From Planctomycetota bacterium (lineage in GTDB: Bacteria > Planctomycetota > UBA8108 > UBA1146), in contig CBFIET010000122.1 of NCBI GenBank assembly GCA_965661685.1, forward strand, positions 93,106-157,105: 64,000 nucleotides of DNA, in the 5' to 3' direction. The translations under genes and the position numbers were made by a program. Below the pieces are notes generated by a model that saw only the letters and a list, made by a program, of their open reading frames with translations, did no database searches and was not told where the DNA came from. Shown one piece after another: positions 38,336 to 60,245 of the stretch (position 1 is its first letter; every line of letters starts with the position of its first letter).

Positions 38336-38343
38336 GGCATCCC

Positions 38344-39882: not shown

Positions 39883-39925
39883 CGGCCAGGCCTTTCCCAG
39901 GCCAGCGGGTAGATCGGCAAGGGAC

Positions 39926-41788: not shown

Positions 41789-41922
41789 CGAATCTCCCAA
41801 CAAGCAGGTTCTTCCACGAGAAGGCCCGGGCGTGCTACGACCGGCCGCCGGAATGCAGGAATAAACAGGACGTGACACGGGGCCGATCTATTCAACCAGC
41901 CTTACGATCCAATCGCTGGCGG

Positions 41923-44148: not shown

Positions 44149-45068
44149 GTTCCTTCCTCATCCGACGACTGGTCGCCGCATCCATCACCATCTGGGCGGT
44201 GTTCACAATCTCCTTCATCATCGTGCGCGCTGCACCGGGAGGACCCTTCGACGATGAGCGCGATCCGCCTCCCGACATCAAGCAGGCGATCGAAGCTCGA
44301 TACCATCTCGACGATCCGCTGTGGAAGCAGTACCTGCGACAGATGGGCGGCTGGTTACTCCTCGACCCCGGTCCGTCCCTCCGGCAACCGGACCACGACG
44401 TCGGCAGCATCCTGGCAGCGGGCCTGCCGATCTCCTTGCTGCTGGGGGGATTGTCGCTGCTGCTGGGAACCTGCGCAGGAATCTGCCTGGGAGTCCTTGC
44501 TGCATCTCGAAGTGGCGGCTGGATCGACCATCTGGTTGTGCTGATCGCCTCCATCGGCATCTCGCTGCCGCTGTATGTCATCGCCGGCATCGCGGTTCTC
44601 GGCATCTCCTTCCAGCTCGGCTGGCTGCCCCCTGCCGGCTGGCAATCGACCTCGTCACTGATCCTTCCGGTGCTGTGCCTGTCGCTGGCCCCCGCCGCAC
44701 AGGCTGCCCGCATGGTTCGCACATCCATCCTCGAGATGATCGGTGAGGACTTCGCCCGGACCGCCCGAGCCAAGGGCAGTTCCCCCACCGCCATTCTCTT
44801 CCGCCACTGCCTTCGCCCTGCGTTGATCCCGTTGATCTCCACCCTCGGCCCCACCGCAGCAGCACTGCTCACCGGTTCGCTGGTGATCGAACAGATCTTT
44901 GCGATTCCCGGGGTCGGTATGCATTTCGTGCAGGGCGCACTCAATCGAGACTACCCGCTGGTGCTCGGCGCGGTGCTCCTCTACACGGTGCTCCTGCAAC
45001 TGATGACACTGCTGACGGACCTGTTGCTGGTAGCTCTCGATCCGCGGCTGCGGGAAGAGTCGCCATGA
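44145..45068 (+). CDS. ABC permease (OppB/DppB-like), GTG start overlapping the SBP stop (GTGA)
   Basis: VSSFLIRRLVAASITIWAVFTISFIIVRAAPGGPFDDE... There is no ATG between the GTG and the first TM segment. Confidence 0.8.
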   Translation: MSSFLIRRLVAASITIWAVFTISFIIVRAAPGGPFDDERDPPPDIKQAIEARYHLDDPLWKQYLRQMGGWLLLDPGPSLRQPDHDVGSILAAGLPISLLLGGLSLLLGTCAGICLGVLAASRSGGWIDHLVVLIASIGISLPLYVIAGIAVLGISFQLGWLPPAGWQSTSSLILPVLCLSLAPAAQAARMVRTSILEMIGEDFARTARAKGSSPTAILFRHCLRPALIPLISTLGPTAAALLTGSLVIEQIFAIPGVGMHFVQGALNRDYPLVLGAVLLYTVLLQLMTLLTDLLLVALDPRLREESP

Positions 45069-45922
45069 AGAAACGACTCGCCGATCGATCTCCCCTCTCC
45101 GTCATCGCCTGTCTGTGGTTATTGATGGTTCTCATCGTCGCCGTCACCACTCCCTGGTTACCGCTGCAATCACCGGAAAGCGCAGAACCCTCGATGGCGT
45201 GGGCCGCTCCCGATGGAACCCACCCACTGGGCACCGATGCACTGGGCAGAGATCTCTTCAGTCGCATCCTGTGGGGGTCGAGGGTGTCGCTTGCGTGCGC
45301 CCTGGCAGGTGCCGTCGCAGCACTGCTACTGGGTGTCAGCTGGGGTCTGGTAGCGGGAGGTGGATCGACGCGACGAGACAACTGGATGATGAGAATCGTC
45401 GACCTGCTCGATTCGGTGCCAGTGGTCTTCCTCGTCATCCTGGTGGCCAGCATCGCCCGGGGAAGCCGCTGGGAGAGTGCCGGGGGAGGGATCGCCCTCT
45501 TCTTCCTGATCCTCGGCGTCGTCTACTGGACTCCGATGGCGAGAGTCGTCCGGGGAGAAACCCGCTCCCTCGCCCGTCGCGAATGGGCGCAAGCTGCGGT
45601 GGCTCTGGGCACTCCCCCGACACGGGTGCTGTGGAGACATCTGCTCCCCAATCTGATCCCGACCATCCTGGTGACGGTAACCCTGATCATCCCGCGGGTA
45701 CTCCTCTTCGAGGCGTTCCTCTCCTTCCTCGGTCTGGGAGTGCAAGCGCCAGCGGTCTCGTGGGGAACCCTGGCCCGGGATGCGTTCGAGGTGCTGAATC
45801 CGGTCAAGACCGCCTGGTGGTTGGTGGCATTCCCCTCGGCAGTACTGGCATTGACGCTGCTGGCCCTCAACATCGTCGGCGACGCCCTGCGTGGCCGACT
45901 CGACCCGAAACAGCGCCGCTGA
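45065..45922 (+). CDS. ABC permease (OppC/DppC-like)
   Basis: ATGA overlap with the upstream permease. BPD_transp_1 core. Confidence 0.8.
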   Translation: MKKRLADRSPLSVIACLWLLMVLIVAVTTPWLPLQSPESAEPSMAWAAPDGTHPLGTDALGRDLFSRILWGSRVSLACALAGAVAALLLGVSWGLVAGGGSTRRDNWMMRIVDLLDSVPVVFLVILVASIARGSRWESAGGGIALFFLILGVVYWTPMARVVRGETRSLARREWAQAAVALGTPPTRVLWRHLLPNLIPTILVTVTLIIPRVLLFEAFLSFLGLGVQAPAVSWGTLARDAFEVLNPVKTAWWLVAFPSAVLALTLLALNIVGDALRGRLDPKQRR

Positions 45923-45931
45923 CCCGGGTAA

Positions 45932-46855
45932 CTAGTCCTTCATCTTTGGATCGAAGGCGTCCCGCAGACCATCGCCGAGCAGGTTGAAGCCGAGCACGGT
46001 GATCATGATGGCGAGCCCGGGAAAGACTCCCATCCACGGCTTCTCGACCCAGTACTCCTTGGAGTCCACCAGCATCCTGCCCCACGACGGGGATGGAGGA
46101 GGCAAACCGATTCCAAGGAAGGAGAGGCCCGCCTCGGCCAGGATATTTCCGGCGATCATCAGCGTCGAGACCACCACCACCGGCCCGAGACAGTTGGGCA
46201 ATACATGACCTACCAGGATTCGCGTGTCACTCTGCCCCAGTGCTCGAGCTCCCAGCACGAACTCACTTCCACGCAGGGAAATCACCTGCGCTCGAACGAT
46301 GCGGGCGACACCGGGCCAGCCAACAAGTCCGAGAGCCGCAAAGATCTTGTACTCGTCAGGTTTCTCGAAGACCGCCAGGATCCCGATCGTCAGCAGCAGG
46401 CTCGGGAAGGCGAAGAAGGTATCGGTCAGGCGCGAGATCACCGTGTCGACGGTTCCTCCGCGAAAACCAGCCAGACTTCCCAGGACCAGACCGATGAGCA
46501 GAGCCACCATCGTACCGATCAGTCCCACACGAAGGGAGATCCCTGCTCCGTAGACGATGCGAGTCCAGATGTCTCGTCCCTGTTCATCGGTACCGAGCGG
46601 GTGCCCTTCGATGCCTGGAGGCTGCTGGTACTCGTCGGCGGATCTGAATTGCTGATCGTAGGAATAAGGAGCAGTTCCATCTGCATTCGATGGAACCAAC
46701 CAGGAGGGAAACAGTGCCAGCACCACCACGATGGCGACGACCACCGCTCCGAGCATCGCCAGGCGATTGCTATACAATCGCTTGAGCGCCATGCGGGTAG
46801 GAGAGTTGCTCGATCTAGCGTCTGTCATCGCGAACCCTCGGATCGAACCATGCAT
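45932..46855 (-). CDS. ABC permease (OppC/DppC-like); true start may be an internal Met (~46828)
   Basis: ...LIGLVLGSLAGFRGGTVDTVISRLTDTFFAFPSLLL... Confidence 0.8.
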   Translation of the reverse strand: MHGSIRGFAMTDARSSNSPTRMALKRLYSNRLAMLGAVVVAIVVVLALFPSWLVPSNADGTAPYSYDQQFRSADEYQQPPGIEGHPLGTDEQGRDIWTRIVYGAGISLRVGLIGTMVALLIGLVLGSLAGFRGGTVDTVISRLTDTFFAFPSLLLTIGILAVFEKPDEYKIFAALGLVGWPGVARIVRAQVISLRGSEFVLGARALGQSDTRILVGHVLPNCLGPVVVVSTLMIAGNILAEAGLSFLGIGLPPPSPSWGRMLVDSKEYWVEKPWMGVFPGLAIMITVLGFNLLGDGLRDAFDPKMKD

Positions 46856-47762
46856 AGGAGAGGTCGACCAGCAGGTTGACCCCGATGAAGACGAAGGACA
46901 TCAGCAGGATGCCGCCCGTGATCAGCTCACGATCGCGTGTCTTGATCGCCTCCACCACTTCTCGCCCCAGTCCTGGTAACGCAAAGACGGTCTCGGTCAA
47001 GACCGCTCCCACCAGCAGATAACCGAACGAATTGCCCACCACGGTAACGATGGGAATCGCGGCATTTTTCAGCGAATGCTTGAGGATCACGACCCGTTCG
47101 CTGAGTCCCTTCGATCGAGCGGTGCGGATGTAATCCTGGGTGAGGACATCGAGCATGGCGGAACGGCTGAGGCGTGCAATCGTTGCCGATGAGAGGAACC
47201 CCAGCGCCGCCGCCGGCATCGCCAGCGAACGCAGTACCGATGTGATACTGCTGTCATCGAATCCGGTCCTGGGAAGCCCCAGCACCGGAGCTACGTAGAT
47301 GATCATCAGGATGCCGAGCCAGAAAACCGGCATCGAGACCCCGAAGATGGCGATGATCATCGACACGTAATCGAAGATGGTCCGGCTGCGTACCGCCGAC
47401 AGGATTCCTGCGCCGATGCCGATGAACAACGCAACGACGATGGAAAGGAATGCCAGCCGCAAGGTGACGAGAAACGCCTCGCCGAGGATCTCGTTGACCC
47501 TTTTCCCCGATTTGACATCGGAGACTCCCAGGTCGAAATCGATGAAGAGATTTCCCAGGTATCGGAAGTACTGTTCCGGCAAGGGATCGTTGTAGCCACG
47601 CTCGGTATTGTACGCCTCGACCGCTGCAGGATCGGCGCGCTGCCCGAGGCGGATGCGGCCCGGATTCCCCGGAATCGCTGCGTTGAGAATGAAGACGATC
47701 ATCGTCACCAGCAAGATGACGGGAATCGCCTCCAGTAGTCGTCGGATCGTGTATGAGAGCAA
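46815..47762 (-). CDS. ABC permease (OppB/DppB-like)
   Basis: MLSYTIRRLLEAIPVILLVTMIVFILNAAIPGNPG... Confidence 0.8.
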   Translation of the reverse strand: MLSYTIRRLLEAIPVILLVTMIVFILNAAIPGNPGRIRLGQRADPAAVEAYNTERGYNDPLPEQYFRYLGNLFIDFDLGVSDVKSGKRVNEILGEAFLVTLRLAFLSIVVALFIGIGAGILSAVRSRTIFDYVSMIIAIFGVSMPVFWLGILMIIYVAPVLGLPRTGFDDSSITSVLRSLAMPAAALGFLSSATIARLSRSAMLDVLTQDYIRTARSKGLSERVVILKHSLKNAAIPIVTVVGNSFGYLLVGAVLTETVFALPGLGREVVEAIKTRDRELITGGILLMSFVFIGVNLLVDLSYAWFDPRVRDDRR

Positions 47763-47771
47763 GGGTCCCCG

Positions 47772-49460
47772 TTATTGATCGCTACTGGTGTCGAGTTCAA
47801 CCAGATGCCAGCGTACATGATTGCCCTGAACATCGTCGCACATTCCGGTGGCATTGAAGTTCTTGACGTACGGTTTCAACAACACCGTCTCACGACCGAA
47901 GAGCAGCACCAGCCAGGGACTGTCTGCCAGGATTCGTTGCTCAGCCTCCTGCAGCAGGGCGATCCGCGTATCCATGTCGGTCACCAGGTTTGACTGATCG
48001 AGCAACTGGTCCACCTTTTCATCGCCGTAGAAGGAGACATTTCCATTGGGTCCCTTGTTCCTGGAATGGAAGAGGAAGGTGAGGAAATTCTCCGGATCGG
48101 GGTAATCCGCCACCCAGCCGAGGCGGAAGAAGGGAGGTTCCCCCGAATCGGTCGCCTCGATGAACGCACCCCAGTCGAGCATTTTCAAGTCGATGGGGAT
48201 GCCGACCGCTTTCAGATCCTGCTGCACCGCCTGAGCGATCTTGGCATTGTCGCCCTGGGTGTTGAACCACAGGTCGACCGGCTTCAGCCCTTCACCGCCA
48301 GGGTATCCCGCCTCCGCCAGCAGCGCTTTGGCCCCATCGGGGTCGTGACTGTATGCGGGTCGAGACGCATCGTGACCACGGATTCCCGGCGGCAGGATTC
48401 CGTTGGCGGGGTAGAAACGCCCCTCCAGCAGAACATCTCCCAGGAACGTACGGTCCACTGCCAGGTTCACCGCTTCGCGCAATTTCCGGGCAGAGTCGGA
48501 GTCCCCCGCATAGGGGGATCCTTCCTTTTCCAGGTTGAATCCGTAGTACTGCACCGCCAGCGATGGCCAGCTCTTGACCTCGTTGGCGCGGTTCGACTTG
48601 CTCCACTTCGGGTAGATCCCCTGGGTGACTGCCAGTACATCGAAGTTGCCCGCCTTGTACTCTTCAAGCTGGGCAAGAGGCTCCGGAATGACACGGTAGT
48701 GGATTCCTGACAGCTTTGGAGCCCCCTCGAAGTAGTCCGGATTGGCCTGTAGCTGCAGCGACACACCCTCCTTCCACTCTTCCAGGATGAAAGGACCTGT
48801 GCCGATCGGTGATCTTGAAAAGCGATCTCCCACCTCTTCGACGACAGCGCGTGGCACCACTGCGGTGTTGACCATGGCGAGATTGTAGATGAAGGGTGCA
48901 TGAGCTTGATTGAGGGTGATCCGTAACTGCCGCTCCCCCAGCACCTCGATACCGGAAATTTCGGGAGAGACCTGCGGATTGCTACGAGAATCCTTGATCG
49001 CATTTTTGGCTCCGACGATCGGCTCGATCAGATTGGATCGCTTCGAACGGACCGATGCGAGCCTCTGCAAACTGTACTTGAAATCTGCAGCGGTAACGGC
49101 GGTTCCGTTACTGAAACGAATCCCTTCACGGATGGTGAAATCGTAGCGGGTGCCATCTTCGGAGATTGTCGGCATCGACTCGGCGAGACACGGTTCCAGT
49201 TCCAGTTGAGGATCGTAGTCGAGCAGGGTATTGAAGATCTTGGAGGCAACTCCATCCGAGGTGGTGTCGGAGACCAGGATCGGATCGAGATCAGGCGGGT
49301 TCGTCATCAGGGGAACCCGAAAAATACCGTCCGGACTCGGCGCAGAAACGCTGACGATCTCGGTTGAGTTGCTGGCACCGGTACATCCGGCAATGAGACA
49401 GATGGCCACTACCAGCAGGGAACCGTTGGCAACTCGAATCCAGTCGGTAATCTTGGACAT
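47772..49460 (-). CDS. ABC substrate-binding lipoprotein, family 5; start ATG 49460 behind an AGGAG SD (the ORF's upstream extension to 49586 is not used)
   Basis: MSKITDWIRVANGSLLVVAICLIAGCTGAS lipobox. SBP_bac_5 architecture. Confidence 0.8.
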   Translation of the reverse strand: MSKITDWIRVANGSLLVVAICLIAGCTGASNSTEIVSVSAPSPDGIFRVPLMTNPPDLDPILVSDTTSDGVASKIFNTLLDYDPQLELEPCLAESMPTISEDGTRYDFTIREGIRFSNGTAVTAADFKYSLQRLASVRSKRSNLIEPIVGAKNAIKDSRSNPQVSPEISGIEVLGERQLRITLNQAHAPFIYNLAMVNTAVVPRAVVEEVGDRFSRSPIGTGPFILEEWKEGVSLQLQANPDYFEGAPKLSGIHYRVIPEPLAQLEEYKAGNFDVLAVTQGIYPKWSKSNRANEVKSWPSLAVQYYGFNLEKEGSPYAGDSDSARKLREAVNLAVDRTFLGDVLLEGRFYPANGILPPGIRGHDASRPAYSHDPDGAKALLAEAGYPGGEGLKPVDLWFNTQGDNAKIAQAVQQDLKAVGIPIDLKMLDWGAFIEATDSGEPPFFRLGWVADYPDPENFLTFLFHSRNKGPNGNVSFYGDEKVDQLLDQSNLVTDMDTRIALLQEAEQRILADSPWLVLLFGRETVLLKPYVKNFNATGMCDDVQGNHVRWHLVELDTSSDQ

Positions 49461-49949
49461 GGGAAGACACTCCTCTTTCCTTCGATGACACTCTTCAGGG
49501 ATGGTCACCTTACAGTAAACGATTGCCGTTTTCAGTTGGAGATCGGCCGGGAATCCAGAATCATCGAGAGCCCCATCTCGTCGCACGGAAGTTCCAGAAA
49601 CAGCCCCCCTGGTACTTCCACGAGCCTATTATTCAGCGCATCCGCTTCCTCGGATCAGCGCCAAGAAACAGCCATTCACCGGAAATCTGGCCGCTGCTCC
49701 ATGAGGGGATCGACCCGATTGATCGCCACCACCGATCTACTGACCGCCAGCCGACGCCTTCATCTCCTTTGATTACACCGCTCATCGCCGCTGGTATTCC
49801 TGCCGGCAGCCGGTCCCCTGTCAGCAACCCCGGATGGCGCATTGCCGTGCTACTTCGCACAAGGTAACTTATCCGCTCCCTTGACTTTGGAAACCGATCG
49901 ATCGAATCGATCACCCCACGACAGTCTCGAATTCCCGGAAGAGGAAACC

Positions 49950-51875
49950 ATGAGATCGACCGCTCCCTGGTACAACTCTCGTCCCCTCGCCCTGCTCCTG
50001 TCGAGTTTCATCCTGATTGCAGGCTGCACCTCGGGTGGCGACGATGGCACGGGAGGCGCGAGCAACGTTTCCAAGCCGCCGGTGGTGACCCGCACCACCG
50101 TCTCCAGCAACACGCGCCCCGTGGAACCTGAAATAGACCTGACGATTCCGACGGGAGAGCCGAACCCTCCCTTCGTCGGAACCCTCACTTCGGATGCCCA
50201 GATCGAGAATCGCACCGGCACCTACGGCGGACGATTTGTCTACGCCATCCTCGGAGAGGTGGAGACCTTCAATCCGGTGGAGCCCAAGGGGGCCACCGAC
50301 CAGGAGATCCGCTCGCTCGCCTTCTCGTCGCTGGTTGGCTACAGCAATGGCAACTGGGAAACGGGACCGGAACTGGCAAAATCGTGGGAAGTCTCTTCCG
50401 ACAACCTCACCTGGACCTTTTTCCTCCGGGAAGGAATCGAGTGGAGCGACGGCACTCCTCTCACCGTCGAGGATGCACTCTTCAGTTTCCAGGCAGTCTT
50501 TCACGACAAGATCGCAACCAGCATCAAGGACGGCTTCAAGCATCCAAAAACAGGAGCACTGCCACAGGTCAGTATCGACCCCGAGCGCAACGCTGTGATC
50601 TTCAACCTGTCCAGGGTCGATTCGCAATTCCTCACCCATGTCGGCAACGTGAAGATCATTCCCAGACACAAGTGGAAGGACCATCTTCAGGCCGACAATC
50701 CGACTCTCCTGCAGCAGATGACTTCCGACGCCCCTCCGGAGGATCTTGTCGGTTCCGGCCCCTTCGTCCTCGTCGAGTACGTTCCTGCCGAGAAGATCGT
50801 GTACAGGCGCAATCCTCGCTACTGGAAGAAGGATGTTCGCGATCAGCGGCTCCCCTATCTCGATGAACTGGTGATCGTGCTGGTCAAGGACCTGAATCTC
50901 CAGTGGCAGAAGTTCGAGGCGGGAGAACTCGATATCTTCATGGACCTCCCTGCCGACCATTACAAGGAAGCGCTGGCGATGGAGAAATCCGGAAGCGCAG
51001 ATCTGATCCGCCTGGGAGTCAGTCTCAACAGCAACTGGGTATGCTTCAATCTGCATCCGGGGAGTGATCCCGAGACGAAGATTCCCTACGTTTCGCCCGA
51101 GAAATCGTACTGGTTCAATCAGCTCGAATTCCGCAAGGCAGTCAATCACGCCATCGACAGGGAAGGGATCCAGCGCACCGCTTTCCAGGGGCGCGCGACC
51201 CCCATCTGGTCTAGCATCACCCCTGGCAACCGCAGTTGGTACCACAAGGGAGTCCCCACCTATCCATACTCGGTCGAAAAATCGCTGGAAATCCTCGATG
51301 GTCTCGGTTGGAAGGACAGTGACGGGGATGGAGTCAGGGAAGACGACAAGGGTCGCCCCATCGTCTTCAACCTGAACACCAACGTCGAGAACAACATCCG
51401 CCAGCAGCTGGGCAACATGATCGCACAGGACCTGAAAAAGGTAGGCATCCAGGTCAACTTCAAGCCGATCATCTTCAACGATCTGGTGACCAGCCTGCGC
51501 GATAGCCACCGCTGGGACATGATCCTGCTCGGCTGGGGCTCGGGCGTCCCGCCCGACCCGGCAAACGGCAAGAACATCACCCTGTCCAGTGGACGCTTGC
51601 ACGCCTGGTACCCACAGCAGCCGGAGCCGGCCACTCCCTGGGAAGCGCGGATCGACGACCTGATGACGATGATGGATGAAGAACTCGATGACACCGTACG
51701 CAAGAAGTACTACGACGAGGTACAGGAATTGTTTTGTACCAACATCCCGATGCTGTACCTGATCGCTGCGAACAGCTACGCCACCGTCAAGAAGAACCGC
51801 ATCGGCAACCTTTGGCCAAGTGTATTGAGACCACAGTTGACGTGGAACATCGAGACGCTGTGGATCCGGCCTTGA
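49950..51875 (+). CDS. ABC substrate-binding lipoprotein, family 5; start ATG 49950 behind a GAGGAA SD
   Basis: MRSTAPWYNSRPLALLLSSFILIAGCTSGG lipobox. SBP_bac_5 architecture. Confidence 0.8.
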   Translation: MRSTAPWYNSRPLALLLSSFILIAGCTSGGDDGTGGASNVSKPPVVTRTTVSSNTRPVEPEIDLTIPTGEPNPPFVGTLTSDAQIENRTGTYGGRFVYAILGEVETFNPVEPKGATDQEIRSLAFSSLVGYSNGNWETGPELAKSWEVSSDNLTWTFFLREGIEWSDGTPLTVEDALFSFQAVFHDKIATSIKDGFKHPKTGALPQVSIDPERNAVIFNLSRVDSQFLTHVGNVKIIPRHKWKDHLQADNPTLLQQMTSDAPPEDLVGSGPFVLVEYVPAEKIVYRRNPRYWKKDVRDQRLPYLDELVIVLVKDLNLQWQKFEAGELDIFMDLPADHYKEALAMEKSGSADLIRLGVSLNSNWVCFNLHPGSDPETKIPYVSPEKSYWFNQLEFRKAVNHAIDREGIQRTAFQGRATPIWSSITPGNRSWYHKGVPTYPYSVEKSLEILDGLGWKDSDGDGVREDDKGRPIVFNLNTNVENNIRQQLGNMIAQDLKKVGIQVNFKPIIFNDLVTSLRDSHRWDMILLGWGSGVPPDPANGKNITLSSGRLHAWYPQQPEPATPWEARIDDLMTMMDEELDDTVRKKYYDEVQELFCTNIPMLYLIAANSYATVKKNRIGNLWPSVLRPQLTWNIETLWIRP

Positions 51876-51894
51876 TGGTGCTGAAGGAGTCCCG

Positions 51895-53067
51895 TTGCTG
51901 ACATTCACCATCCGGAGAATGCTCTCGATACCGCCACTGATCCTGGTGGTCTCGATGCTGACCTTCTTGCTGCTCAAAACAGCACCGGGGGATTTCTACA
52001 GCCAGATGGAAGCGGACCACACCCGCTCCCTCACCGAGGTCCTTCGTCAGAAGGAGTCCGCTGGAATCCTGGTACGACTCTCCTCGGTCGAGATGGAACA
52101 GCTCGGTGAGTTCCGCGACGATGGAGCCACCTGGCGATTCCACAACGACGGAGGCGAGACGCCGAACATCATCAAGGATGAGCAGGTGGTCGCCGAACGG
52201 AGCGCTTCGGAATTACAGAACTTCCAGATCGGCGTCACCAAGTACCAGCGTGATGACGAAGGCGTGGTCTACCGCAAGGTCGGCCCGGTGGAAGGTTTCT
52301 TTTCCTGGTTCTTCAACGCCCTCACCGGTGATTTCGGACGCTCCTACAAGTACAACCGTGAGGTCTTCGGGATCATCCAGGAACGCCTCGTCAACACACT
52401 GACCCTGTCCCTTGCTGCGCTGATCATCGCCTACGGTCTGGGCATCCCTCTCGGCGTCTTTGCCGCCGTCAAACCGAACTCCAAACTCGACCACAGCGCC
52501 GGGGTGATCGCCTTCATCGGCCTGTCAGTCCCGACCGTCTTCTCTGCGCTACTGGCCGTGATGTTTGCATCCTATACAGGTCTCTTCCCCATCGGCGAGA
52601 TGCGATCGCTCGACTACAACCAGTTGAGTCCCTGGGGCAAGTTCCTGGAACGCATCCACCACCTGATCCTCCCCTCCCTGGTACTGGGAACTTCTGCCAT
52701 GGCCGGTTACATGCGCCAGGCCCGCGGAAACATGATCGAGGCTCTGGGGCAGGATTACGTGCGCACCGCCAGGGCCAAGGGAGCGTCCCACTTCGACGTG
52801 CTCTTCAAGCACGCGTTCCGCAATGCCGTAAATCCCCTGGTCACCCTCTTCGGCTACTCCCTTGCCAGTCTTCTCAGTGGCAGCCTGCTGGTCGAGATGG
52901 TCTTCAACTGGCCCGGACTGGGGAGGCTGATCTTCGATGCCATCAGCGCCAAGGATGAACCGCTGGTGCTGGCGAGCGTGCTGATCTCCACCTTGCTACT
53001 CGTCTTTGGAAACCTGGTCGCAGACCTCCTGCTCGCCATCGTCGATCCGAGAGTGAGGCTCACCTGA
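51895..53067 (+). CDS. ABC permease (OppB-like) with periplasmic insertion
   Basis: MLTFTIRRMLSIPPLILVVSMLTFLLLKTAPGDFYSQ... C-terminal ...NLVADLLLAIVDPRVRLT. Confidence 0.8.
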   Translation: MLTFTIRRMLSIPPLILVVSMLTFLLLKTAPGDFYSQMEADHTRSLTEVLRQKESAGILVRLSSVEMEQLGEFRDDGATWRFHNDGGETPNIIKDEQVVAERSASELQNFQIGVTKYQRDDEGVVYRKVGPVEGFFSWFFNALTGDFGRSYKYNREVFGIIQERLVNTLTLSLAALIIAYGLGIPLGVFAAVKPNSKLDHSAGVIAFIGLSVPTVFSALLAVMFASYTGLFPIGEMRSLDYNQLSPWGKFLERIHHLILPSLVLGTSAMAGYMRQARGNMIEALGQDYVRTARAKGASHFDVLFKHAFRNAVNPLVTLFGYSLASLLSGSLLVEMVFNWPGLGRLIFDAISAKDEPLVLASVLISTLLLVFGNLVADLLLAIVDPRVRLT

Positions 53068-54368
53068 TGGCTAACGAGCAAGACGTAAAGGGCCTGCCAC
53101 CGCCGAGAGGACCGTGGACGATGCTGTGGCATCGCCTGCGCAAGAATCGCATCGCCATGATCGGTGCAGCGATTCTCGTCATCCTCTACACCCTCAGTTC
53201 CCTCGGTGGATTCATCTCTCCTTACGGAAAGAACGACACCAACAAGTACACCGTCAAGTACGGACCGATGTTGCTGGGCGGATACAGCATCCAGAAAGTC
53301 GAGGAGCTGGTCACCGAAGATGAAAACCTGGAAGAGGTCATCCTCAGCAGGTACGAACGAACCTGGGATTGGTTCAGGGGTGGAGTTCACTTCCACGACT
53401 CGGATGGAAACTTCAGCCTTCGACCTCATGTCCATCCTCTGGTCGAGTACAAATCGTGGGATCAGTACGGAGAATACGAGTACCTGCTCGCCGAGGACCG
53501 TAGTCGTTCGATTCCCGTCAGTTTCTTCGTCACCTCCGAAACTCCTCACGAACTGTTCAGCCTCTGTGGCTTTCTACCGGTGGAGGGGTCCACCCATCTG
53601 ATGGGCCTGGCACTGGAAGACATCCCCCAGGAACCCGACACCCATGCCGGCCTGTTCCTGCTCGGCACCGACATCCTGGGCAGAGATCTGTGGACTCGAA
53701 TCCTCTACGGCGGCCAGGTGTCGCTGTCGGTGGGCCTGATCGGAATCCTCATCAGCATCTCCATCGGCCTCGTCATCGGTGGGGTCGCCGGTTACTTCGG
53801 TGGACAGATCGACTTCTGGCTGATGCGACTGGTGGAACTGTTGCTGGCGATCCCCGGTCTGTATCTGATCCTGACGCTGCGCTACGCCATCCCCGACGAA
53901 CTGAGCCCGCGCCAGACCTACATGATGATCGTGGCGATTCTCGCCATCGTCGGCTGGGCCAGTACCGGCAGGATGATCCGCGGCATGGTGCTGAGTCTTC
54001 GAGAGAGTGAGTACGCCCTGGCAGCGAAGGCACTGGGAGGATCGTCGGCGAGGGTCATCCTCCGACACCTGCTTCCCAACACCGCCTCCATCGTCATCGT
54101 CACCGCCACCCTCTACATTCCCTACTACATCCTCGGCGAGGTGGCTCTCTCCTTCCTTGGATTCGGCATCACCGAGCCCGATTCTTCGTGGGGATTGCTG
54201 CTGAAGGATTGCCAGAACACCGAAGTGCTCAAGTTCAATCCATGGCTGATCACTCCCGGATTCTTCATCTTCATGGCGGTTCTCGCCTACAACTTCCTCG
54301 GAGATGGATTACGAGATGCAGCGGATCCAAGGGCGTTCCTCGGAGTCTCCAAGAAGGAGGGGTCCTGA
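53067..54368 (+). CDS. ABC permease (OppC-like) with N-terminal periplasmic extension
   Basis: 1-nt overlap (TGATG) with the upstream gene. TM1, a ~150-aa extracytoplasmic domain, then the BPD_transp_1 core. Confidence 0.8.
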   Translation: MANEQDVKGLPPPRGPWTMLWHRLRKNRIAMIGAAILVILYTLSSLGGFISPYGKNDTNKYTVKYGPMLLGGYSIQKVEELVTEDENLEEVILSRYERTWDWFRGGVHFHDSDGNFSLRPHVHPLVEYKSWDQYGEYEYLLAEDRSRSIPVSFFVTSETPHELFSLCGFLPVEGSTHLMGLALEDIPQEPDTHAGLFLLGTDILGRDLWTRILYGGQVSLSVGLIGILISISIGLVIGGVAGYFGGQIDFWLMRLVELLLAIPGLYLILTLRYAIPDELSPRQTYMMIVAILAIVGWASTGRMIRGMVLSLRESEYALAAKALGGSSARVILRHLLPNTASIVIVTATLYIPYYILGEVALSFLGFGITEPDSSWGLLLKDCQNTEVLKFNPWLITPGFFIFMAVLAYNFLGDGLRDAADPRAFLGVSKKEGS

Positions 54369-55804
54369 TCCAAGGTCCCCTGCTCCTGACCCTGATCAGC
54401 AGTTTCCTCTTCACTGCGGTAGAAGACCCGTCCCCTCCATCGATCCTTCTCATCGTCGTCGATGATCTCGGCTGGAAGGATCTGGCGGTGACGGGAAGTA
54501 CCTTCTACGAGACTCCCGCCATCGATGCCCTGGCAGCTTCCGGAGTCCGTTTCGATAGAGCCTACGCTGCATGCCCCGTCTGCAGCCCGACCCGTGTCAG
54601 CTTGCAAACCGGCATCCATCCGGCACGCCTCGCCACCACCGACTACTTCGGTGCTCCGGGACCGGCGAGGTGGAAACGAGCGACGACCCACCGCCCTGCA
54701 CCGTATCTCGACCGCCTACCCCTCGAACAACAAACCATCGCAGAACTGCTCGAGCCACACCGATATTCGACCTTCTTCGCCGGCAAGTGGCACCTGGGTC
54801 CGGAAGGATTCTGGCCCGAGGATCAGGGATACCAGCTCAACCGTGGCGGCTGGACACGGGGAGGTCCCTACGGAGGCAAGAAATACTTCTCCCCCTACGG
54901 AAACCCGAGACTGAAGGATGGACCGGAAGGGGAGCATCTCCCCGATCGACTCGCCAGCGAGACGATTCGCTTCATCGAAGAGCATCGTGATCGCCCCTTC
55001 CTTGCCGTTCTCAGCTTCTACTCGGTGCACACCCCACTCATCGCCCGCGACGACCTGACTCGCAAGTACCGCGAAAAGAAGAAGCAGATGGGACTGGAAG
55101 CCAGCTGGGGACGTGAAGGTTCTCGCAAGGTCAGAGAGGTTCAGGAGCACGCGGTGTATGCAGGGATGGTCGAAGCGATGGATTCCGCTGTGGGCCGCGT
55201 TCTCGACGCCCTGCAAAGGCTCGAACTCGATGACAACACCATCGTCATGCTGACCTCCGACAACGGCGGCCTCAGCACCTCCGAAGGACATCCCACCAGC
55301 AACTTGCCACTGCGAGGGGGCAAGGGTTGGATCTACGAGGGAGGGATCCGGGTACCGCTGATGGTGAGGGGTCCTGGGGTCCAGGGAACTGGCCGCCTCA
55401 TCGATCGCCCGGTCCAGAGTACCGACCTTGTCCCGACATTGCTGAACCTTGCAGGGATCCCCGCACCGGCCGACTGGAAGCCCGATGGGCACTCCTTTCA
55501 CCGTTCGCTGGCGGGACTCGAAGAAGAGAATCAACCACCACTCTTCTGGCACTACCCCCACTATGGAAACCAGGGCGGATCCCCCGCCTCGGCAGTGATG
55601 GATGGAGACTGGAAACTGGTCGAACTGCTCGAAACGAAACGGCTCGAACTCTACAACCTCGGTAGCGACCCCGAAGAATCGACGATCCTCAACTCACGCC
55701 ACCCCGAACAGGTGCAACGGCTGAAGAAGTTACTCGATGAGTGGCGAGCCGATGTTGGGGCGAGATGGCCCACACCCACCCCAGAAGAGGGGAAACAGGA
55801 CTAG
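54365..55804 (+). CDS. Cys-type sulfatase (formylglycine-dependent; arylsulfatase family). Start codon unresolved (no ATG/GTG/TTG after the upstream stop)
   Basis: ILLIVVDDLGWKD... and CPVCSPTRVSLQTG (C-x-P-x-R FGly motif). Reading frame is continuous with 54188 and overlaps the permease 3' end. Confidence 0.75.
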   Translation: MIQGPLLLTLISSFLFTAVEDPSPPSILLIVVDDLGWKDLAVTGSTFYETPAIDALAASGVRFDRAYAACPVCSPTRVSLQTGIHPARLATTDYFGAPGPARWKRATTHRPAPYLDRLPLEQQTIAELLEPHRYSTFFAGKWHLGPEGFWPEDQGYQLNRGGWTRGGPYGGKKYFSPYGNPRLKDGPEGEHLPDRLASETIRFIEEHRDRPFLAVLSFYSVHTPLIARDDLTRKYREKKKQMGLEASWGREGSRKVREVQEHAVYAGMVEAMDSAVGRVLDALQRLELDDNTIVMLTSDNGGLSTSEGHPTSNLPLRGGKGWIYEGGIRVPLMVRGPGVQGTGRLIDRPVQSTDLVPTLLNLAGIPAPADWKPDGHSFHRSLAGLEEENQPPLFWHYPHYGNQGGSPASAVMDGDWKLVELLETKRLELYNLGSDPEESTILNSRHPEQVQRLKKLLDEWRADVGARWPTPTPEEGKQD

Positions 55805-57762
55805 CGGCAATCGCCGATGGAATCGAGAGCTTGTGGATTGGCGATGCTGGTCAGATCCCCCAGCTCGGATTCTCCCAGATGGCGGGCTCGAATCAGTCTC
55901 CTGACGATCTTTGCGCTGCGGGTTTTCGGCAGATCATCGACGAAGTACACCGCCCTCGGCCGATCGACCTTGCCCAGCGATGCAACCACCTGATCGGAGA
56001 GTTGCGAACGCAGATCTTCCGTCTCGACCGTTGCCGTGTGAAGGACGACGAAACAGACCAGTTCCGTCCCCTTGAGATCATCGGGAACCCCGATCGCTGC
56101 CGCTTCACTCACCGCCGGGTGATCGATCAGTGCCGACTCGATCTCACCGGGCCCGACTCTTCTTCCTGCGATGTTGAGGGTGTCATCCGCCCGTCCGAAC
56201 AGGAACCATTCGCCTGCATCATCGACCAGTGCCCAGTCCCCGTGGTTCCAGATCCCCGGGAATCGCGACCAGTACGTATCCAGGTACTTCTCATCCGCCT
56301 GCCATAACGAGCGTGTCATCGAAGGCGCGGGATTCTTGCACACCAGGTATCCCACCTCTCCCTCCAGCGAATTGCCGTCCTCATCGAAGACATCGATATC
56401 CATGCCGAGTCCAGGCGATTGAAGGGAAGTCTCGCCGATGGGCAGGACCGGCAGCGGTGCCAGGAAGCAACCGACGATGTCGGTTCCGCCGGAGATGTTG
56501 ATGATGGGTAATCGTGATCCTCCGACCTTGTCGAAGTACCACCGGTAACTTTCAGGATCCCACGGTTCCCCGGTGGAGCCGAGGATTCGCAGGGAGTCCA
56601 TCGGGTGGGCAGCGGCGGGTGCGTCACCGGAACGCATCAGCAAGCGGATGGCGGTGGGACTGATTCCGAGGTGGGTCACGCCATAGCGCTCCACCACCTG
56701 CCACACCCGATCGGCTCCGGGGTAATCGGGTGCGCCCTCGAATACCACGAAGGGAACCCGATTCATCCAGCAACCGATGATCTCCCACGGCCCCATCATC
56801 CAACCGATGTCGGAGAACCACCAGAACAGGTCGCTGCCTCGCTGCACATCGAAGTTGTAACGGACTTCCTTGCCCATCTGGGCCATACATCCGGCATGGG
56901 TATGGATCGTACCCTTTGGTTTCCCCGTGGTGCCGCTGGTGTAGATCATCAACGCCGGATCCATCGCCCCCATCATCTCCGTCGTCGCATCACCGGACAG
57001 TCCTTCCAGTGAATCCTGCCACCACAGGTCGCGCCCCTGTCTCATCGGTGCGCCTCCATCGCCACGGCGAAGCACCACCTGATGACGGAATGAGGGCAGC
57101 CCCTCCACGGCAAGATCCGCCTGCTCCTTCAATTCAAAATGCTGGCCCCGGCGCATTCCGACATCGGCGGTGAAGAGAACCCTTGCTCCTGAATCTTCAA
57201 GACGCTCACGCACCGACGGTGCGGCATACCCGCTGAAGATGGGAATGAAGACCGCTCCCACCTTCATCGTCGCCAGCATCGCGAACACCACCTCGCCAAC
57301 CATCGGCATCAGGCACGCCACCCGGTCACCACGATTGACGCCCAGATTGACCAGCAACTGGGCCAGTTTATCGACCTCGTCCGCAGCTTCCTGAAAGGTC
57401 CAGCGCCGTGATTCCCCATCTTCCTGCTCCGCAACCAGCGCCACTTCATCGGGAGATTCAGCAGCGGGAATGTCGAGGCAGTTGAGGGCGATGCTGGTCT
57501 CCCCACCGACGAACCAGTCGCACCACTGGGGACCTTGCGATCGATCCAGTACCTGTTGATAGCGACGCGACCACACCACCCCGAGGTCATCGATGACGGC
57601 GGGCCAGAACTGTTCGGGTTCATCCTGACTCCAGCGAATGAATCGCCTCACCGACCTGGAGACATCATCCAGATCGATGGGCTGCCCCACTCGTTGCATC
57701 AGTTTTGCCACGTTGGTGTCGAGGATCTTGTCGCGGTCCGGTTTCCACAAGGCCGAGGTCAT
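55801..57762 (-). CDS. acetoacetyl-CoA synthetase (acetoacetate-CoA ligase, AMP-forming)
   Basis: N-terminus MTSALWKPDRDKILDTNVAKLM...FWPAVIDDLGVVWS typical of AACS. AMP-binding motifs YTSGTTGKPKG and IAGRRVGPGEIE. Length 653 aa. Confidence 0.8.
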   Translation of the reverse strand: MTSALWKPDRDKILDTNVAKLMQRVGQPIDLDDVSRSVRRFIRWSQDEPEQFWPAVIDDLGVVWSRRYQQVLDRSQGPQWCDWFVGGETSIALNCLDIPAAESPDEVALVAEQEDGESRRWTFQEAADEVDKLAQLLVNLGVNRGDRVACLMPMVGEVVFAMLATMKVGAVFIPIFSGYAAPSVRERLEDSGARVLFTADVGMRRGQHFELKEQADLAVEGLPSFRHQVVLRRGDGGAPMRQGRDLWWQDSLEGLSGDATTEMMGAMDPALMIYTSGTTGKPKGTIHTHAGCMAQMGKEVRYNFDVQRGSDLFWWFSDIGWMMGPWEIIGCWMNRVPFVVFEGAPDYPGADRVWQVVERYGVTHLGISPTAIRLLMRSGDAPAAAHPMDSLRILGSTGEPWDPESYRWYFDKVGGSRLPIINISGGTDIVGCFLAPLPVLPIGETSLQSPGLGMDIDVFDEDGNSLEGEVGYLVCKNPAPSMTRSLWQADEKYLDTYWSRFPGIWNHGDWALVDDAGEWFLFGRADDTLNIAGRRVGPGEIESALIDHPAVSEAAAIGVPDDLKGTELVCFVVLHTATVETEDLRSQLSDQVVASLGKVDRPRAVYFVDDLPKTRSAKIVRRLIRARHLGESELGDLTSIANPQALDSIGDCR

Positions 57763-58649
57763 CCATGGCTCCTCTCGGCTCGCTCGAGGAGGTGGGCCCG
57801 ATACAGTTCCTGTAGCCGACCGGTGATCGAACCCTCGTCTAGGCTGCTCAGTTCTCGACCGTCGATCGACTGCACAGCACAGACCCCTCGTACCGAAGCG
57901 GTGACGAATGCTTCCCGGGCGCCGAGCAGATGGGAGAGGGGGAAGGATCCCTCGACCACCTCGATGGCGGAGGATTCCAGCAGATCGATCACCGATCTCC
58001 TGGTGATCCCTGCCAGAACTCGATCCTCGCCGCAGGTAAACACGGTGGAATCCTCCACCCAGAACAGATTGGCCGCAGTCGCCTCGGTGACGACTCCGTC
58101 TCCATCGAGCAACACCGCCTCGTCACATCCGCTGCGCAGCGCCTCATCCCTGGCGATGATCGAGGGCAAGTAGTTGCCGCACTTGACCCGGGGATCGAGA
58201 ACCTGCGGGGACGGCTTCTGTTGCCTCGCCACCATCAGAGAGAGCGGCTCGGAGGTGGAGTCCTCATCAATTTCCGTTGCCATGATGACGAGTCGCGGCT
58301 GACAGCCCCCCGGTGCATGGCTACCGCCGATCCGATCTCCCCTAGACACGGTGATCCGCACGACCACATCACACCCCGGAGAAAACTTCTCCTGCAGACG
58401 ACAGATCTGTCGCCGCACATCGTCATCATCGAGGGTGTAGTCGAATTGCATCCGTCGCAGTGACTCCTCGAGTCTCTTCAGATGGTCTGGCAGAAACAGG
58501 GCGTTTCCACCGTGAGTGCGAAGGGTCTCGAATACCGAATCTCCGTAGAGGAATCCTCGATCGAGAACACTCACCGTCGCAAGTCTGGTGTCGACCACCT
58601 CGCCGCCGATGGATGTCCAGGAGCGCGGCCTGGAGATGGCTTCCTTCAC
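57759..58649 (-). CDS. class-IV (fold type IV) aminotransferase (BCAT / D-amino-acid aminotransferase / ADC-lyase family); GTG start 58649 overlapping the upstream stop (GTGA)
   Basis: VSVLDRGFLYGDSVFETLR, catalytic-Lys region KCGNYLPSI, and LAGITRRSV motifs. Confidence 0.75.
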   Translation of the reverse strand: MKEAISRPRSWTSIGGEVVDTRLATVSVLDRGFLYGDSVFETLRTHGGNALFLPDHLKRLEESLRRMQFDYTLDDDDVRRQICRLQEKFSPGCDVVVRITVSRGDRIGGSHAPGGCQPRLVIMATEIDEDSTSEPLSLMVARQQKPSPQVLDPRVKCGNYLPSIIARDEALRSGCDEAVLLDGDGVVTEATAANLFWVEDSTVFTCGEDRVLAGITRRSVIDLLESSAIEVVEGSFPLSHLLGAREAFVTASVRGVCAVQSIDGRELSSLDEGSITGRLQELYRAHLLERAERSHG

Positions 58650-59680
58650 GGAGACGGTTCTTCCAGTAATCCGCCACTGTTCCCTGACAGTTGAAGTTCC
58701 ACCGCTTGCTCTGACAGGGCTGGAAACAGCAGCGCAGAGGATTCTCCGCACGCTCCTGGAAAGATGACCCTGCCCCCGGCACTGCTGATGCGCGCAGGAG
58801 TGGCGGGACAGGCGATCTGGTACACCGCACGCGCCTTCAACGCTTCGCAACCATCGAGCAGTGGGATCCAGTGCTTCCAATCTTCGCGAAACGATGTGAA
58901 TTGATCCCAGTTCACTGCCGGATTGGAAGCCTCATCGGCTGCGCAATCTTCGTACAGTCTCAGTTCATGAAAACCATCACCCCGATCGAAAAGAATCGCA
59001 CGATCTTCGTGCCACTGGATGATGGGAGGTAACTCCTCATCCAGTTGAAGGGTGAAGATGGATACGGTCTCCCGCTGAAAAGGATGTCGAACGCCAAGTT
59101 TTTCGAGCCAGTGGAGGGAGGAAACCCCTGTACACAGGTAAACCTTTTCGGCGACCCCCTCGCGAATTCCGGCACTGAAGTGGACCGAATCGGGCTTCTC
59201 CACCAGGGTCGACAGCGCTGATCCGGGAAAGAAGAGACCTCCCGCCTTGCGAATCCTCCACATCAGAGCGGAAGCGACCGTCACCGAGTCGACGGTGGAG
59301 GCAGATCCATCGATGGAGCAAACGGGACCGCTAGCACTGAGATTGGACCAGCGGCGCATCGCATCGGCGCCATCGAGGGTCTCCAGCGAGTTCTTCTGGG
59401 CCCGAGGCAACAGCGCGCCACAACGTCGCAGCTGCGGATCCACCTCGATCCAGTCGGACCAACCCTCGTAGAGTTCCCGCGCCCGATCGACCAGGGCAGA
59501 CCAGCTCCCCTCTCGTGGCGGCAGTAACGGGGCCCTCTCACCAGTAGGACCCGCCTGAGGAGAATCCAGAGAATCGAGGAGGATCACCGATCCCTGCTCT
59601 CTGCGGAGCAGATGATCAACCACCGCCAGACCGGTGGAACCAGCCCCCACCACCAGATGTTCGCAATGTAGCGGTTTCAA
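58646..59680 (-). CDS. FAD-dependent oxidoreductase (DAO family; glycine/D-amino-acid oxidase-like)
   Basis: N-terminal dinucleotide-binding HLVVGAGSTGLAVVDHL. Overall DAO-like length and organisation. Confidence 0.7.
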   Translation of the reverse strand: MKPLHCEHLVVGAGSTGLAVVDHLLRREQGSVILLDSLDSPQAGPTGERAPLLPPREGSWSALVDRARELYEGWSDWIEVDPQLRRCGALLPRAQKNSLETLDGADAMRRWSNLSASGPVCSIDGSASTVDSVTVASALMWRIRKAGGLFFPGSALSTLVEKPDSVHFSAGIREGVAEKVYLCTGVSSLHWLEKLGVRHPFQRETVSIFTLQLDEELPPIIQWHEDRAILFDRGDGFHELRLYEDCAADEASNPAVNWDQFTSFREDWKHWIPLLDGCEALKARAVYQIACPATPARISSAGGRVIFPGACGESSALLFPALSEQAVELQLSGNSGGLLEEPSP

Positions 59681-59837
59681 CGGCTATTCCTTCCGCACCC
59701 TCTTCCGATACGGAGACTATCACCTCCCAGGAGGTCTCTCCACCTTGACCGTCTTGACCCGAGGACACTTCTTCACAAGTATGGAGGCAACTCCGGAGTT
59801 GCCGGAGCACCCGTCCGATGTCTCAGTGGAGAGGAAC

Positions 59838-60245
59838 ATGCCGATGCTTCGAGGCTGCCATCCCCGTCGCCGCACCATCTGGGTGCTGCTTCCATTGCTC
59901 CTGATCACCCTCTCTGCCTGTCAATCGACCGGCTACAAGGTGACCAGCACCGGACCGTGGGCTGGCCTCTCGTCGGAGGAACCGACTGTCCGCATCACCA
60001 CGATCCATGCGATTCAAAGATCAGTAGATCGCAACAATGTGCCGCTCCTCTTCCCGCTCCTCAATGACAGCGATCGCTGGGTCCGCTTCAACGCTCGGGC
60101 AACGATCCTGTACCTGGCAGGAGAACGGCGAAATACTGCACCCAAGTACGACTACCTGTCCCCGCCCAGGGAGCGCAGATACGCCGTATCGGAACATGAG
60201 GCGTGGTGGCGAGAACTATCGAGACCTGTGCCTCCCACCTCCTGA
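59838..60245 (+). CDS. hypothetical lipoprotein; start ATG 59838 behind a GGAGAGGAA SD (the ORF's upstream extension to 59634 is not used)
   Basis: MPMLRGCHPRRRTIWVLLPLLLITLSACQS lipobox. No known domain recognised. Confidence 0.45.
   Translation: MPMLRGCHPRRRTIWVLLPLLLITLSACQSTGYKVTSTGPWAGLSSEEPTVRITTIHAIQRSVDRNNVPLLFPLLNDSDRWVRFNARATILYLAGERRNTAPKYDYLSPPRERRYAVSEHEAWWRELSRPVPPTS

Follow-up and report, generated by a model that had tools for sequence, protein, structure and literature searches.

A conserved trio of flavoprotein, PabC-like, and acyl-CoA synthetase genes in marine Planctomycetota and the case against a leucine salvage route

Gene organization of the locus

We have analyzed a stretch of 64,000 nucleotides from a Planctomycetota bacterium (contig CBFIET010000122.1, positions 93,106 to 157,105; hereafter the window), in which three closely packed genes on the minus strand encode a flavoprotein, a class-IV enzyme that depends on pyridoxal 5'-phosphate (PLP), and an AMP-forming acyl-CoA synthetase (hereafter the ligase). 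An earlier note made from the DNA alone had read this trio as a dedicated, possibly novel salvage route from amino acids to ketone bodies, with a branched-chain aminotransferase (BCAT) for the first and an acetoacetyl-CoA synthetase (AACS) for the last step of leucine breakdown. Our results are mainly corrective for this reading. The genes, their junctions, and their boundaries are as follows (aa, amino acids; nt, nucleotides; ADC, 4-amino-4-deoxychorismate; ACS, acetyl-CoA synthetase):

58646..59680, minus strand: gene 1, FAD flavoprotein of the DAO superfamily (344 aa, TTG start; PF01266 and a GAGSTG motif)
57759..58649, minus strand: gene 2, PLP enzyme of fold type IV whose signature resembles that of ADC lyase (PabC; 296 aa, GTG start)
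55801..57762, minus strand: gene 3, short-chain acyl-CoA synthetase of the AMP-forming type, ACS-like in its scaffold and AACS-like in its pocket (653 aa, ATG start)
58646..58649, minus strand: GTGA overlap, with the GTG start of gene 2 over the TGA stop of gene 1
57759..57762, minus strand: ATGA start/stop overlap of genes 2 and 3
59681..59840, no strand: divergent intergenic region of 160 nt with the presumed promoter(s), upstream boundary of the trio
59841..60245, plus strand: divergent gene for a HEAT-repeat lipoprotein, a conserved neighbor (134 aa; HEAT_2 at E 2e-5, below the cut-off)
55801..55804, no strand: convergent stop-stop overlap at a palindromic CTAG between the ligase gene and a sulfatase gene (54188-55804, plus strand), 3' boundary of the unit

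Both overlaps are exactly as the earlier note described them when the minus strand is read, and its three superfamily assignments are borne out by Pfam, which finds DAO (PF01266) in the flavoprotein at 52.8 bits (cut-off 27.9), Aminotran_4 in the class-IV protein at 178.5 bits, and an ACAS_N, AMP-binding, and AMP-binding_C architecture in the ligase. The mechanical open reading frame (ORF) of the class-IV gene reaches up to position 58880, and the GTG at 58649 is favored as its start by the N-termini of aligned orthologues. A Shine-Dalgarno-like purine run precedes each of the three starts, i.e., GGAAGGAA at 59694-59687 for the flavoprotein, GGAAGAA at 58664-58658 for the class-IV enzyme, and, clearest of the three, AGGAG at 57773-57769 with a 6-nt spacer to the ATG of the ligase. 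Scanning the divergent intergenic region for the sigma-70 consensus gave no match, and a terminator scan gave no excess of terminator-like sites, which were as frequent in shuffled sequence.

The tight coupling of the three genes had been taken as a sign of a dedicated route. However, the same 4-bp overlaps join unrelated genes in the window such as those for phosphoglycerate kinase and an inositol-monophosphatase-family protein (11139-11142) or those for Glu/Gln-tRNA synthetase and an unknown 269-aa ORF (28335-28338). This genome packs its genes tightly irrespective of functional relation, and the coupling of the trio is weak evidence for a shared function because unrelated genes overlap likewise.

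The class-IV enzyme has an ADC-lyase-like signature

To place the class-IV protein we used the subfamily motif positions of the Hohne table as given in PMC8048526, in E. coli BCAT numbering. There, BCATs are marked by G38 (as F36-x-G38-x-R40) and Y95-x-R97, aminotransferases acting on D-amino acids (D-ATAs) by Y36, V38, and K40 with Y-x-Q at 97 and R-x-H at 107, ADC lyases by [FY]31, F36, T38, K/R97, and RGY107, and (R)-amine transaminases (ATAs) by [HR]31 and Y36 with no R/K at 40 and 97 (PMC8048526). The window protein has Y35 at position 31, F40-E41-T42 at 36-38, R44 at 40, V-V-R98 at 95-97, and G-G-S at 107-109, along with R59, K156, Y160 (Lys+4), and E189, and it agrees with the ADC-lyase motif at four of the five positions. 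Most of this pattern is shared by its orthologues: R98 and K156 are invariant in both of our alignments, position 31 is Y or F, position 36 is F, and position 38 is T in 13 of 14 aligned orthologues (S in L008) and never G, while position 95 is V, L, I, R, or G and never Tyr. The residues with a mechanistic role in PabC are a Thr, a Lys/Arg, the catalytic Lys, and an active-site Tyr that is located either in RGY or at Lys+4 (O'Rourke et al., PMC3174152). For P. aeruginosa PabC, an arrangement of F27-E28-T29 and Arg46 is described, and Y22, F27, and T29 (PMC3174152) are equivalent to Y35, F40, and T42 of the window protein, all three of which are conserved in the orthologues.

These residues contradict the branched-chain aminotransferase role that had been proposed, and the ADC-lyase pattern fits instead. 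A BCAT (IlvE, EC 2.6.1.42) is rejected by T in place of G38 and V in place of Y95, and no orthologue fits this identity either. A D-amino-acid aminotransferase is rejected by F, T, and R, V-V-R, and G-G-S at the diagnostic sites, and an (R)-selective amine transaminase by the presence of R44 (position 40) and R98 (position 97) as well as Y31 and F36.

Family-level similarity tells the subfamilies apart less well. For the window protein and 18 relatives, the BCAT, ADC-lyase (ADCL), and D-ATA hidden Markov models (HMMs) of NCBIfam gave similar scores that are all below cut-off and do not discriminate. The BCAT cut-offs are missed widely (TIGR01122, 160.8 vs. 245.55 bits; NF006185, 173 vs. 363), and the D-amino-acid transaminase subfamily model scores 147.6 bits, also below its cut-off. 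The best full-length PDB matches are archaeal BCATs (118 bits), and an AlphaFold (AF2) model of the protein has a pLDDT of 90.4.

Among the 120 nearest database neighbors of the class-IV protein, [FY]ET is found in 91 and [FW]EG in 13. Two acidobacterial relatives (P0178 and P0211, 36-38% identity) are encoded directly downstream of a gene for chorismate-binding PabB, and a further homologue (P0161) carries the NCBI name ADC lyase and lies ca. 1 kb from an archaeal dihydroneopterin-aldolase gene; the gene contexts of P0156 and P0158 are uninformative on function. The class-IV protein of the clade around locus L008, which evolves more slowly and shows the same 4-bp overlap with the ligase gene, scores 196 bits against a PabC encoded next to PabB and ca. 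153 bits against the window protein. In a neighbor-joining tree, the trio clade and P0156 join E. coli PabC and the PabCs encoded beside pabB, though in only 67 of 200 bootstraps. From its sequence, the class-IV protein is thus probably an ADC lyase, and it is almost certainly not a canonical BCAT. The earlier note had itself named a clear PabC identity as fatal to its proposal, and the protein comes close to this: the residue pattern of an ADC lyase is there, while its identity as PabC is no more than probable.

The ligase combines an ACS-like scaffold with an AACS-like pocket

In NCBIfam, acetate-CoA ligase models rank first for the ligase and are followed by acetoacetate-CoA ligase and propionate-CoA ligase models, but no curated ACS, AACS, or PrpE cut-off is reached (ACS: TIGR02188, 576.3 vs. 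724.95 bits, and NF001208, 583.1 vs. 657; AACS: TIGR01217, 377.8 vs. 520.9, and NF002937, 447.3 vs. 639). The best full-length PDB match is 8RPK at 454 bits, a Chloroflexota AcsA according to PMC11255334, compared to 295 bits for the S. lividans acetoacetate-CoA ligase 4WD1. This ranking depends on the part of the protein that is compared: residues 255-392 favor ACS (125 bits vs. 69), whereas residues 393-545 with the acyl pocket and motifs A5-A8 favor 4WD1 (124 bits, with the top ACS at 96).

The pocket itself differs from that of ACS enzymes. Where these have GWVTGH, SVGEP, DTWWQTETGG, and Y-F-SGD, the window ligase has GWMMGPW, STGEP, INISGGTDIVG, and W-N-HGDW, and the alignment of INISGGTD to DTWWQTE places a glycine at the Trp wall (W414 of S. 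enterica Acs). In addition, V386 of ACS is replaced by Thr, as in 4WD1, and V310/T311 by Met/Met. The GWMM motif may be akin to GWMMWN of AACS enzymes. The Trp wall closes the acyl pocket of ACS and sets these enzymes apart from acetoacetyl-CoA synthetases and from those for medium or long chains (PMC11584562), and a glycine at its position is typical of enzymes that activate acetoacetate (PMC9426453). Since a glycine stands where ACS has its tryptophan wall, the ligase cannot be an enzyme dedicated to acetate. Judged by its sequence, it has the glycine expected of an AACS but falls outside the AACS family as curated. The acetoacetyl-CoA synthetase call of the earlier note therefore stands as far as the pocket and the core closest to 4WD1 are concerned; it does not stand for the protein as a whole, which ACS models score higher and no cut-off admits.

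This pocket is not peculiar to the trio. INISGGTD is kept in all 120 nearest homologues of the ligase (61-95% identity), whose named sources are Planctomycetota bar one labeled Myxococcales. The set of GWMMGPW, STGEP, SGGT[DE], and W-x-HGDW recurs at 42-52% identity in Melainabacteria, Thermoplasmatota, Asgard archaea, Bathyarchaeota, Chloroflexota, Bacillota (a Salirhabdus), and Eremiobacterota, and true ACS sequences with WWQTE do not turn up above 39% identity. Examples of stand-alone ligase genes with the motif set among loci L036-L090 are:

L078:10001-11932, stand-alone ligase
L051:10001-11944, stand-alone ligase
L037:10001-11929, stand-alone ligase

Five diverse members of this family score just under the ACS thresholds and likewise miss the AACS cut-offs, and one protein from Thermoplasmatales exceeds the ACS "subfamily" model; current annotations read "AMP-binding protein" or "acetyl-CoA synthetase". 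Around the ligase gene of other phyla lie unrelated, lineage-specific housekeeping genes (FtsY, NusB, RsmD, sensor kinases), and a metabolic theme that we sought among its recurring neighbors there was not found. The pocket motifs are identical in trio-linked and stand-alone ligases of both bacteria and archaea, and nothing in the sequences suggests a specialization of the ligase for its operon partners. It is possible that the GWMMGPW / SGGT[DE] / HGDW family represents an unrecognized second type of CoA ligase for acetoacetate (or another oxo- or hydroxy-acid) that is shared by bacteria and archaea.

One stand-alone ligase gene in a metagenome-assembled genome (MAG) labeled Myxococcales (L009:5547-11571) is preceded by genes for AdoMet decarboxylase and spermidine synthase and followed by those for malic enzyme and a 361-aa FAD_binding_2/DAO protein. 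This is a single case, and the 361-aa flavoprotein has no similarity to the window oxidase at E<=1e-5.

The flavoprotein belongs to a small family of its own

The N-terminal GAGSTG (the GxGxxG dinucleotide-binding motif) and a two-domain GR2 fold place the flavoprotein in the DAO superfamily, where its closer relatives are few. A word-indexed search found homologues in 23 clusters, all named ones from Planctomycetota, and a profile search run exhaustively over 1.84 billion representatives gave 24 relatives at E<=1e-30, or 33 when the limit was E<=1e-10. Past these, only generic matches of the DAO superfamily appear near E 1e-9. These relatives share an invariant C-terminal GGLLE and several invariant Trp and Arg residues that are specific to the family. 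No NCBIfam cut-off of a named DAO subfamily (ThiO, SoxB/MSOX, DadA, LhgO) is reached, the sole match being LhgO at 17.5 bits vs. 299, and no DadA, DAAO, or Dat cut-off is reached.

Searching the PDB with the sequence gave no match. The AF2 model of the flavoprotein (pLDDT 83.6) has its best Foldseek matches among PDB folds in monomeric sarcosine oxidase, NikD, and glycine oxidase ThiO (15-18% identity, E 4e-20, TM 0.73-0.77) and also superposes on dimethylglycine dehydrogenase and proline dehydrogenase, with 11-19% identity over all five. The fold predicted in this way is that of a generic amine oxidase and gives no clue to the substrate, and the flavoprotein is best described as a putative orphan branch of amine-oxidizing enzymes in the DAO superfamily.

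Conservation of the trio and its neighborhood

A scan anchored on the ligase with one genome per species gave 80 loci. Wherever the ligase is at least 65% identical to that of the window and the upstream flank is present, the ligase gene has the class-IV gene directly upstream (one locus at 67%, L029, lacks the flank), and where the ligase is at least 68% identical, the class-IV gene in turn has the oxidase gene directly upstream. At identities of 63% or less, i.e., in other Planctomycetota and in Polyangiales, no class-IV or DAO gene was found within 10 kb of the ligase gene. Co-conservation of the three genes in related genomes, on which the earlier note had made its proposal depend, thus holds within one Planctomycetota lineage. 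There, the junction of genes 1 and 2 measures -4 to +4 nt in all contiguous trios measured, and that of genes 2 and 3 is an overlap of -4 in 21 of 25 loci and -1 or +3 in the remaining four. Evolution is much faster in the class-IV protein (30-52% identity) than in the ligase (68-81%).

In the clade with 65-67% ligase identity (L008, L028, L030, L104-L106), 3 kb with three unrelated genes (HDOD, YjbQ, and MgsA) on mixed strands split the oxidase gene from the lyase-ligase pair:

L008:2021-7004, split trio: HDOD/HD, YjbQ, and MgsA-type AAA genes between the oxidase gene and the lyase-ligase pair

Within the one lineage to which the trio is confined, its flanks are syntenic as well, with genes for the HEAT lipoprotein (orthologues of 137-168 aa at the same position in relatives), MlaD, a UvrA-like protein of giant size, and Opp permeases that run convergently. 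Of the outgroup class-IV genes, the closest (P0156, at L091:3408-5915) overlaps at its start by 1 nt with the gene of an unrelated, predicted 318-aa lipoprotein with no Pfam domain and adjoins a HEAT-lipoprotein homologue and a cluster of MlaD/MlaE/ABC and STAS/anti-sigma genes; no oxidase or ligase gene was found within the 5 kb fetched on each side. This suggests that the class-IV gene is an ancestral resident near the HEAT and Mla genes whose neighbors have changed around it, because the outgroup has the same neighborhood without oxidase or ligase.

On a 238-kb metagenome contig (L001:9067-11914), the class-IV gene is called as a 421-aa fusion of Aminotran_4 and ACAS_N and the ligase in two frames, which points to frameshifts from assembly errors or in a decaying copy. 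Three contigs (L015, L029, and L032) are labeled "Bacillota bacterium" or "Proteobacteria bacterium" while their ligases are 78%, 67%, and 62% identical to that of the window and L015 has the full trio; these taxonomic labels of MAGs are probably wrong.

Other genes of the window

Our Pfam scans covered 55 ORFs of the window, including most ORFs of at least 200 aa. Among these, we found no gene for isovaleryl-CoA dehydrogenase, methylcrotonyl-CoA carboxylase, HMG-CoA lyase, thiolase, or CoA-transferase. As the earlier note said, this is not the canonical liu/ivd operon. Its pathway from amino acids to ketone bodies is not supported: the residues of the class-IV enzyme speak against it, and no liu/ivd or thiolase genes were found among the scanned ORFs.

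Four gene sets for ABC importers of the Opp/Dpp type adjoin one another, each with an SBP_bac_5 binding protein and two permeases:

41878..36620, minus strand: Opp/Dpp set
42370..45922, plus strand: Opp/Dpp set
49586..45932, minus strand: Opp/Dpp set
49842..54368, plus strand: Opp/Dpp set

A gene for an oligo_HPY Opp-type ATPase lies at 35718..34513, and both in the window and in relatives genes for Opp/Dpp permeases and binding proteins run convergently toward the ligase gene. Other genes encode a sulfatase, the cell-shape proteins MreB, MreC, PBP2, and RodA, Rho, PGK, a tRNA synthetase, a DEAD helicase, and a class-V aminotransferase, and a gene with a shikimate-dehydrogenase domain (30865-32295) is too distant from the trio to be meaningful. 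A second convergent 4-bp stop-stop overlap is found between the MlaD (plus strand) and UvrA-like (minus strand) genes at 61513-61516. The UvrA-like ABC gene (61513-63921) runs off the end of the window; in relatives (L002:485-6211), it encodes a protein of ca. 1,908-1,914 aa with duplicated UvrA_inter and UvrA_DNA-bind domains.

Discussion

We tentatively favor the reading, at a rough probability of 45%, that the trio is a real operon of ordinary kinds of enzymes which is inherited within its lineage and forms no leucine or branched-chain route. In these uncultured marine Planctomycetota, we infer the three genes to be co-transcribed, and they would be translationally coupled and vertically inherited. 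The flavoprotein, a predicted cytoplasmic enzyme, would most likely oxidize some small amine or amino acid at a C-N bond, and the class-IV enzyme would most likely be the PabC of the organism, which forms p-aminobenzoate and pyruvate for folate synthesis. The ligase may be a general short-chain acyl-CoA synthetase, most likely for acetoacetate or a similar C3-C5 oxo- or hydroxy-acid. We read the grouping of these genes as most likely a matter of compact-genome packing and conserved synteny and not of one dedicated pathway because the ligase stands alone elsewhere with the same pocket and the class-IV gene is probably a long-standing resident of its neighborhood.

Two sets of observations weigh against this reading. 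The first concerns PabC: the window protein lacks RGY at 107-109 (G-G-S instead), and Lys+4 is Phe in P0149, P0152, P0153, and L008, though Tyr in the window protein itself (Y160). The NCBIfam ADCL cut-offs are missed (NF005800, 164.5 vs. 308 bits; TIGR03461, 129.1 vs. 176.85), and the BCAT subfamily model scores slightly above the ADCL model (173 vs. 164.5 bits). The grouping with PabCs in our tree is weak, a tblastn search for PabB over the window and all fetched loci gave no match, and no pabA/B or fol genes were found among the 55 scanned ORFs of the window. The second set concerns the grouping of the genes. Adjacency with junctions of -4 to +4 nt is kept in ca. 25 species genomes and 11 metagenome contigs and outlasts divergence to 30-52% identity of the class-IV protein and 41-61% of the oxidase (30-33% in the L008-type clade). 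A metagenome contig of this same clade (L107:963-3860) has the trio contiguous with gaps of ca. 75-150 nt, and every member of the oxidase family with enough flank lies no more than 3 kb upstream of a lyase-ligase pair. A tight, conserved trio with an oxidase confined to the pair is what a functional module would look like.

Such a module could be a dedicated catabolic one in which an imported amino compound is oxidized or cleaved by the flavoprotein and then converted by a PabC-derived PLP enzyme, a transaminase or lyase for a carboxylated amine, to a short or 3-oxo acid that the ligase activates as its CoA thioester. It amounts to the idea of the earlier note stripped of leucine and the BCAT. 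This alternative, which we judge rather unlikely overall, would account for a trio that stays tight while the class-IV protein diverges to 30% identity and for an oxidase family found only beside the lyase-ligase pair, and the Opp/Dpp-type importer genes next to the ligase gene could import the substrate. The class-IV residues leave room for it since T38 is also present in some class-IV transaminases other than ADC lyases, and CpuTA1 and MgiTA1 share residues of ADC lyases and (R)-ATAs (PMC5131300). The glycine in place of tryptophan in the ligase pocket, typical of acetoacetate activation (PMC9426453), would likewise suit it. However, this pocket is unchanged between trio and stand-alone members of the family, the outgroup class-IV orthologue in L091 has neither oxidase nor ligase beside it, and the oxidase is separated from the pair in one sub-lineage. 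The transporter genes are encoded on the strand opposite to the trio, adjacency is weakly informative in a region that is syntenic throughout, and no candidate substrate can be named. It also seems unlikely to us that marine Planctomycetota have an undescribed route, made up of the orphan flavoprotein, a PLP enzyme derived from PabC, and the AACS-like ligase, by which an amino compound, perhaps imported by the Opp/Dpp-type systems next to it, would end up as a CoA-trapped 3-oxo or short acid.

Salvage of D-amino acids, with a D-amino-acid dehydrogenase or oxidase and a transaminase acting on D-Ala or D-Glu from imported peptidoglycan peptides and the ligase on a downstream acid, would fit the DAO-superfamily fold of the flavoprotein, the membership of the second enzyme in class IV with its 147.6 bits against the D-ATA subfamily model, and the peptide-type ABC importers nearby. 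Yet the D-ATA motifs are all absent, the DadA, DAAO, and Dat cut-offs of NCBIfam are missed, and the 2-oxo acids derived from D-Ala and D-Glu are not substrates of acyl-CoA synthetases, and we consider this scenario highly improbable. The leucine route of the earlier note, with a BCAT first, an acetoacetyl-CoA synthetase last, and the oxidase feeding in D- or N-substituted substrates, can point to archaeal BCATs as top PDB matches, to the BCAT subfamily HMM as top score, and to the AACS-like pocket of the ligase, but is scarcely credible given the replacement of the BCAT-defining G38 and Y95, BCAT cut-offs missed by far, a class-IV protein that, unlike IlvE, evolves far faster than the ligase, and no ivd, mcc, liuC, or HMG-CoA lyase genes in the scanned ORFs of the window. 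Scenarios around beta-alanine/CoA, polyamines, or 3-hydroxybutyrate were dropped for want of any support beyond speculation.

Had a single operon joined a BCAT to a ketone-body enzyme, it would have signaled a new salvage route for amino acids, but with this the specificity residues disagree. The small orphan branch of putative amine-oxidizing flavoproteins beside the lyase-ligase pair is a defined target for work on carbon and nitrogen use in abundant uncultured marine Planctomycetota. The most useful by-product of our analysis is a widespread, uncharacterized ligase family between ACS and AACS that is currently unnamed or misnamed "acetyl-CoA synthetase", so that a single characterized member would correct many annotations.

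Comparison with known systems

Among the DAO/GR2 flavoproteins, the window flavoprotein shares the two-domain fold and the N-terminal GxGxxG with monomeric sarcosine oxidase, NikD, and ThiO, from which it differs by its shorter length of 344 aa, its own GGLLE motif, and its restriction to one lineage. Compared to IlvE (E. coli 1I1K; archaeal BCATs 5MQZ and 5CM0), the class-IV protein has Y31, F36, E37, R40, R97, the catalytic Lys, and K-x-x-N-Y in common, while it has T instead of G38, V instead of Y95, and T-S-S-x-x-G instead of G-T-A-A-E and evolves fast. Unlike known PabC enzymes (E. coli 1ET0/1I2K, P. aeruginosa 2Y4R, L. pneumophila 3LUL, and T. thermophilus 2ZGI), it has no RGY at 107-109, and its gene sits between those of an oxidase and a ligase and not next to pabB.

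The ligase, finally, shares its domain architecture and its best global similarity with ACS enzymes (Chloroflexota AcsA 8RPK; S. enterica Acs 1PG4), from which its pocket residues (at V310/T311, V386, and W414) and its scores under the ACS cut-offs set it apart. With AACS enzymes (S. lividans SlAacs 4WD1, C. neoformans Kbc1, and human AACS), it has the glycine in place of the Trp wall, SGGTD, and W-x-HGDW in common, but it differs from them in an ACS-like middle region and a higher full-length score for ACS.

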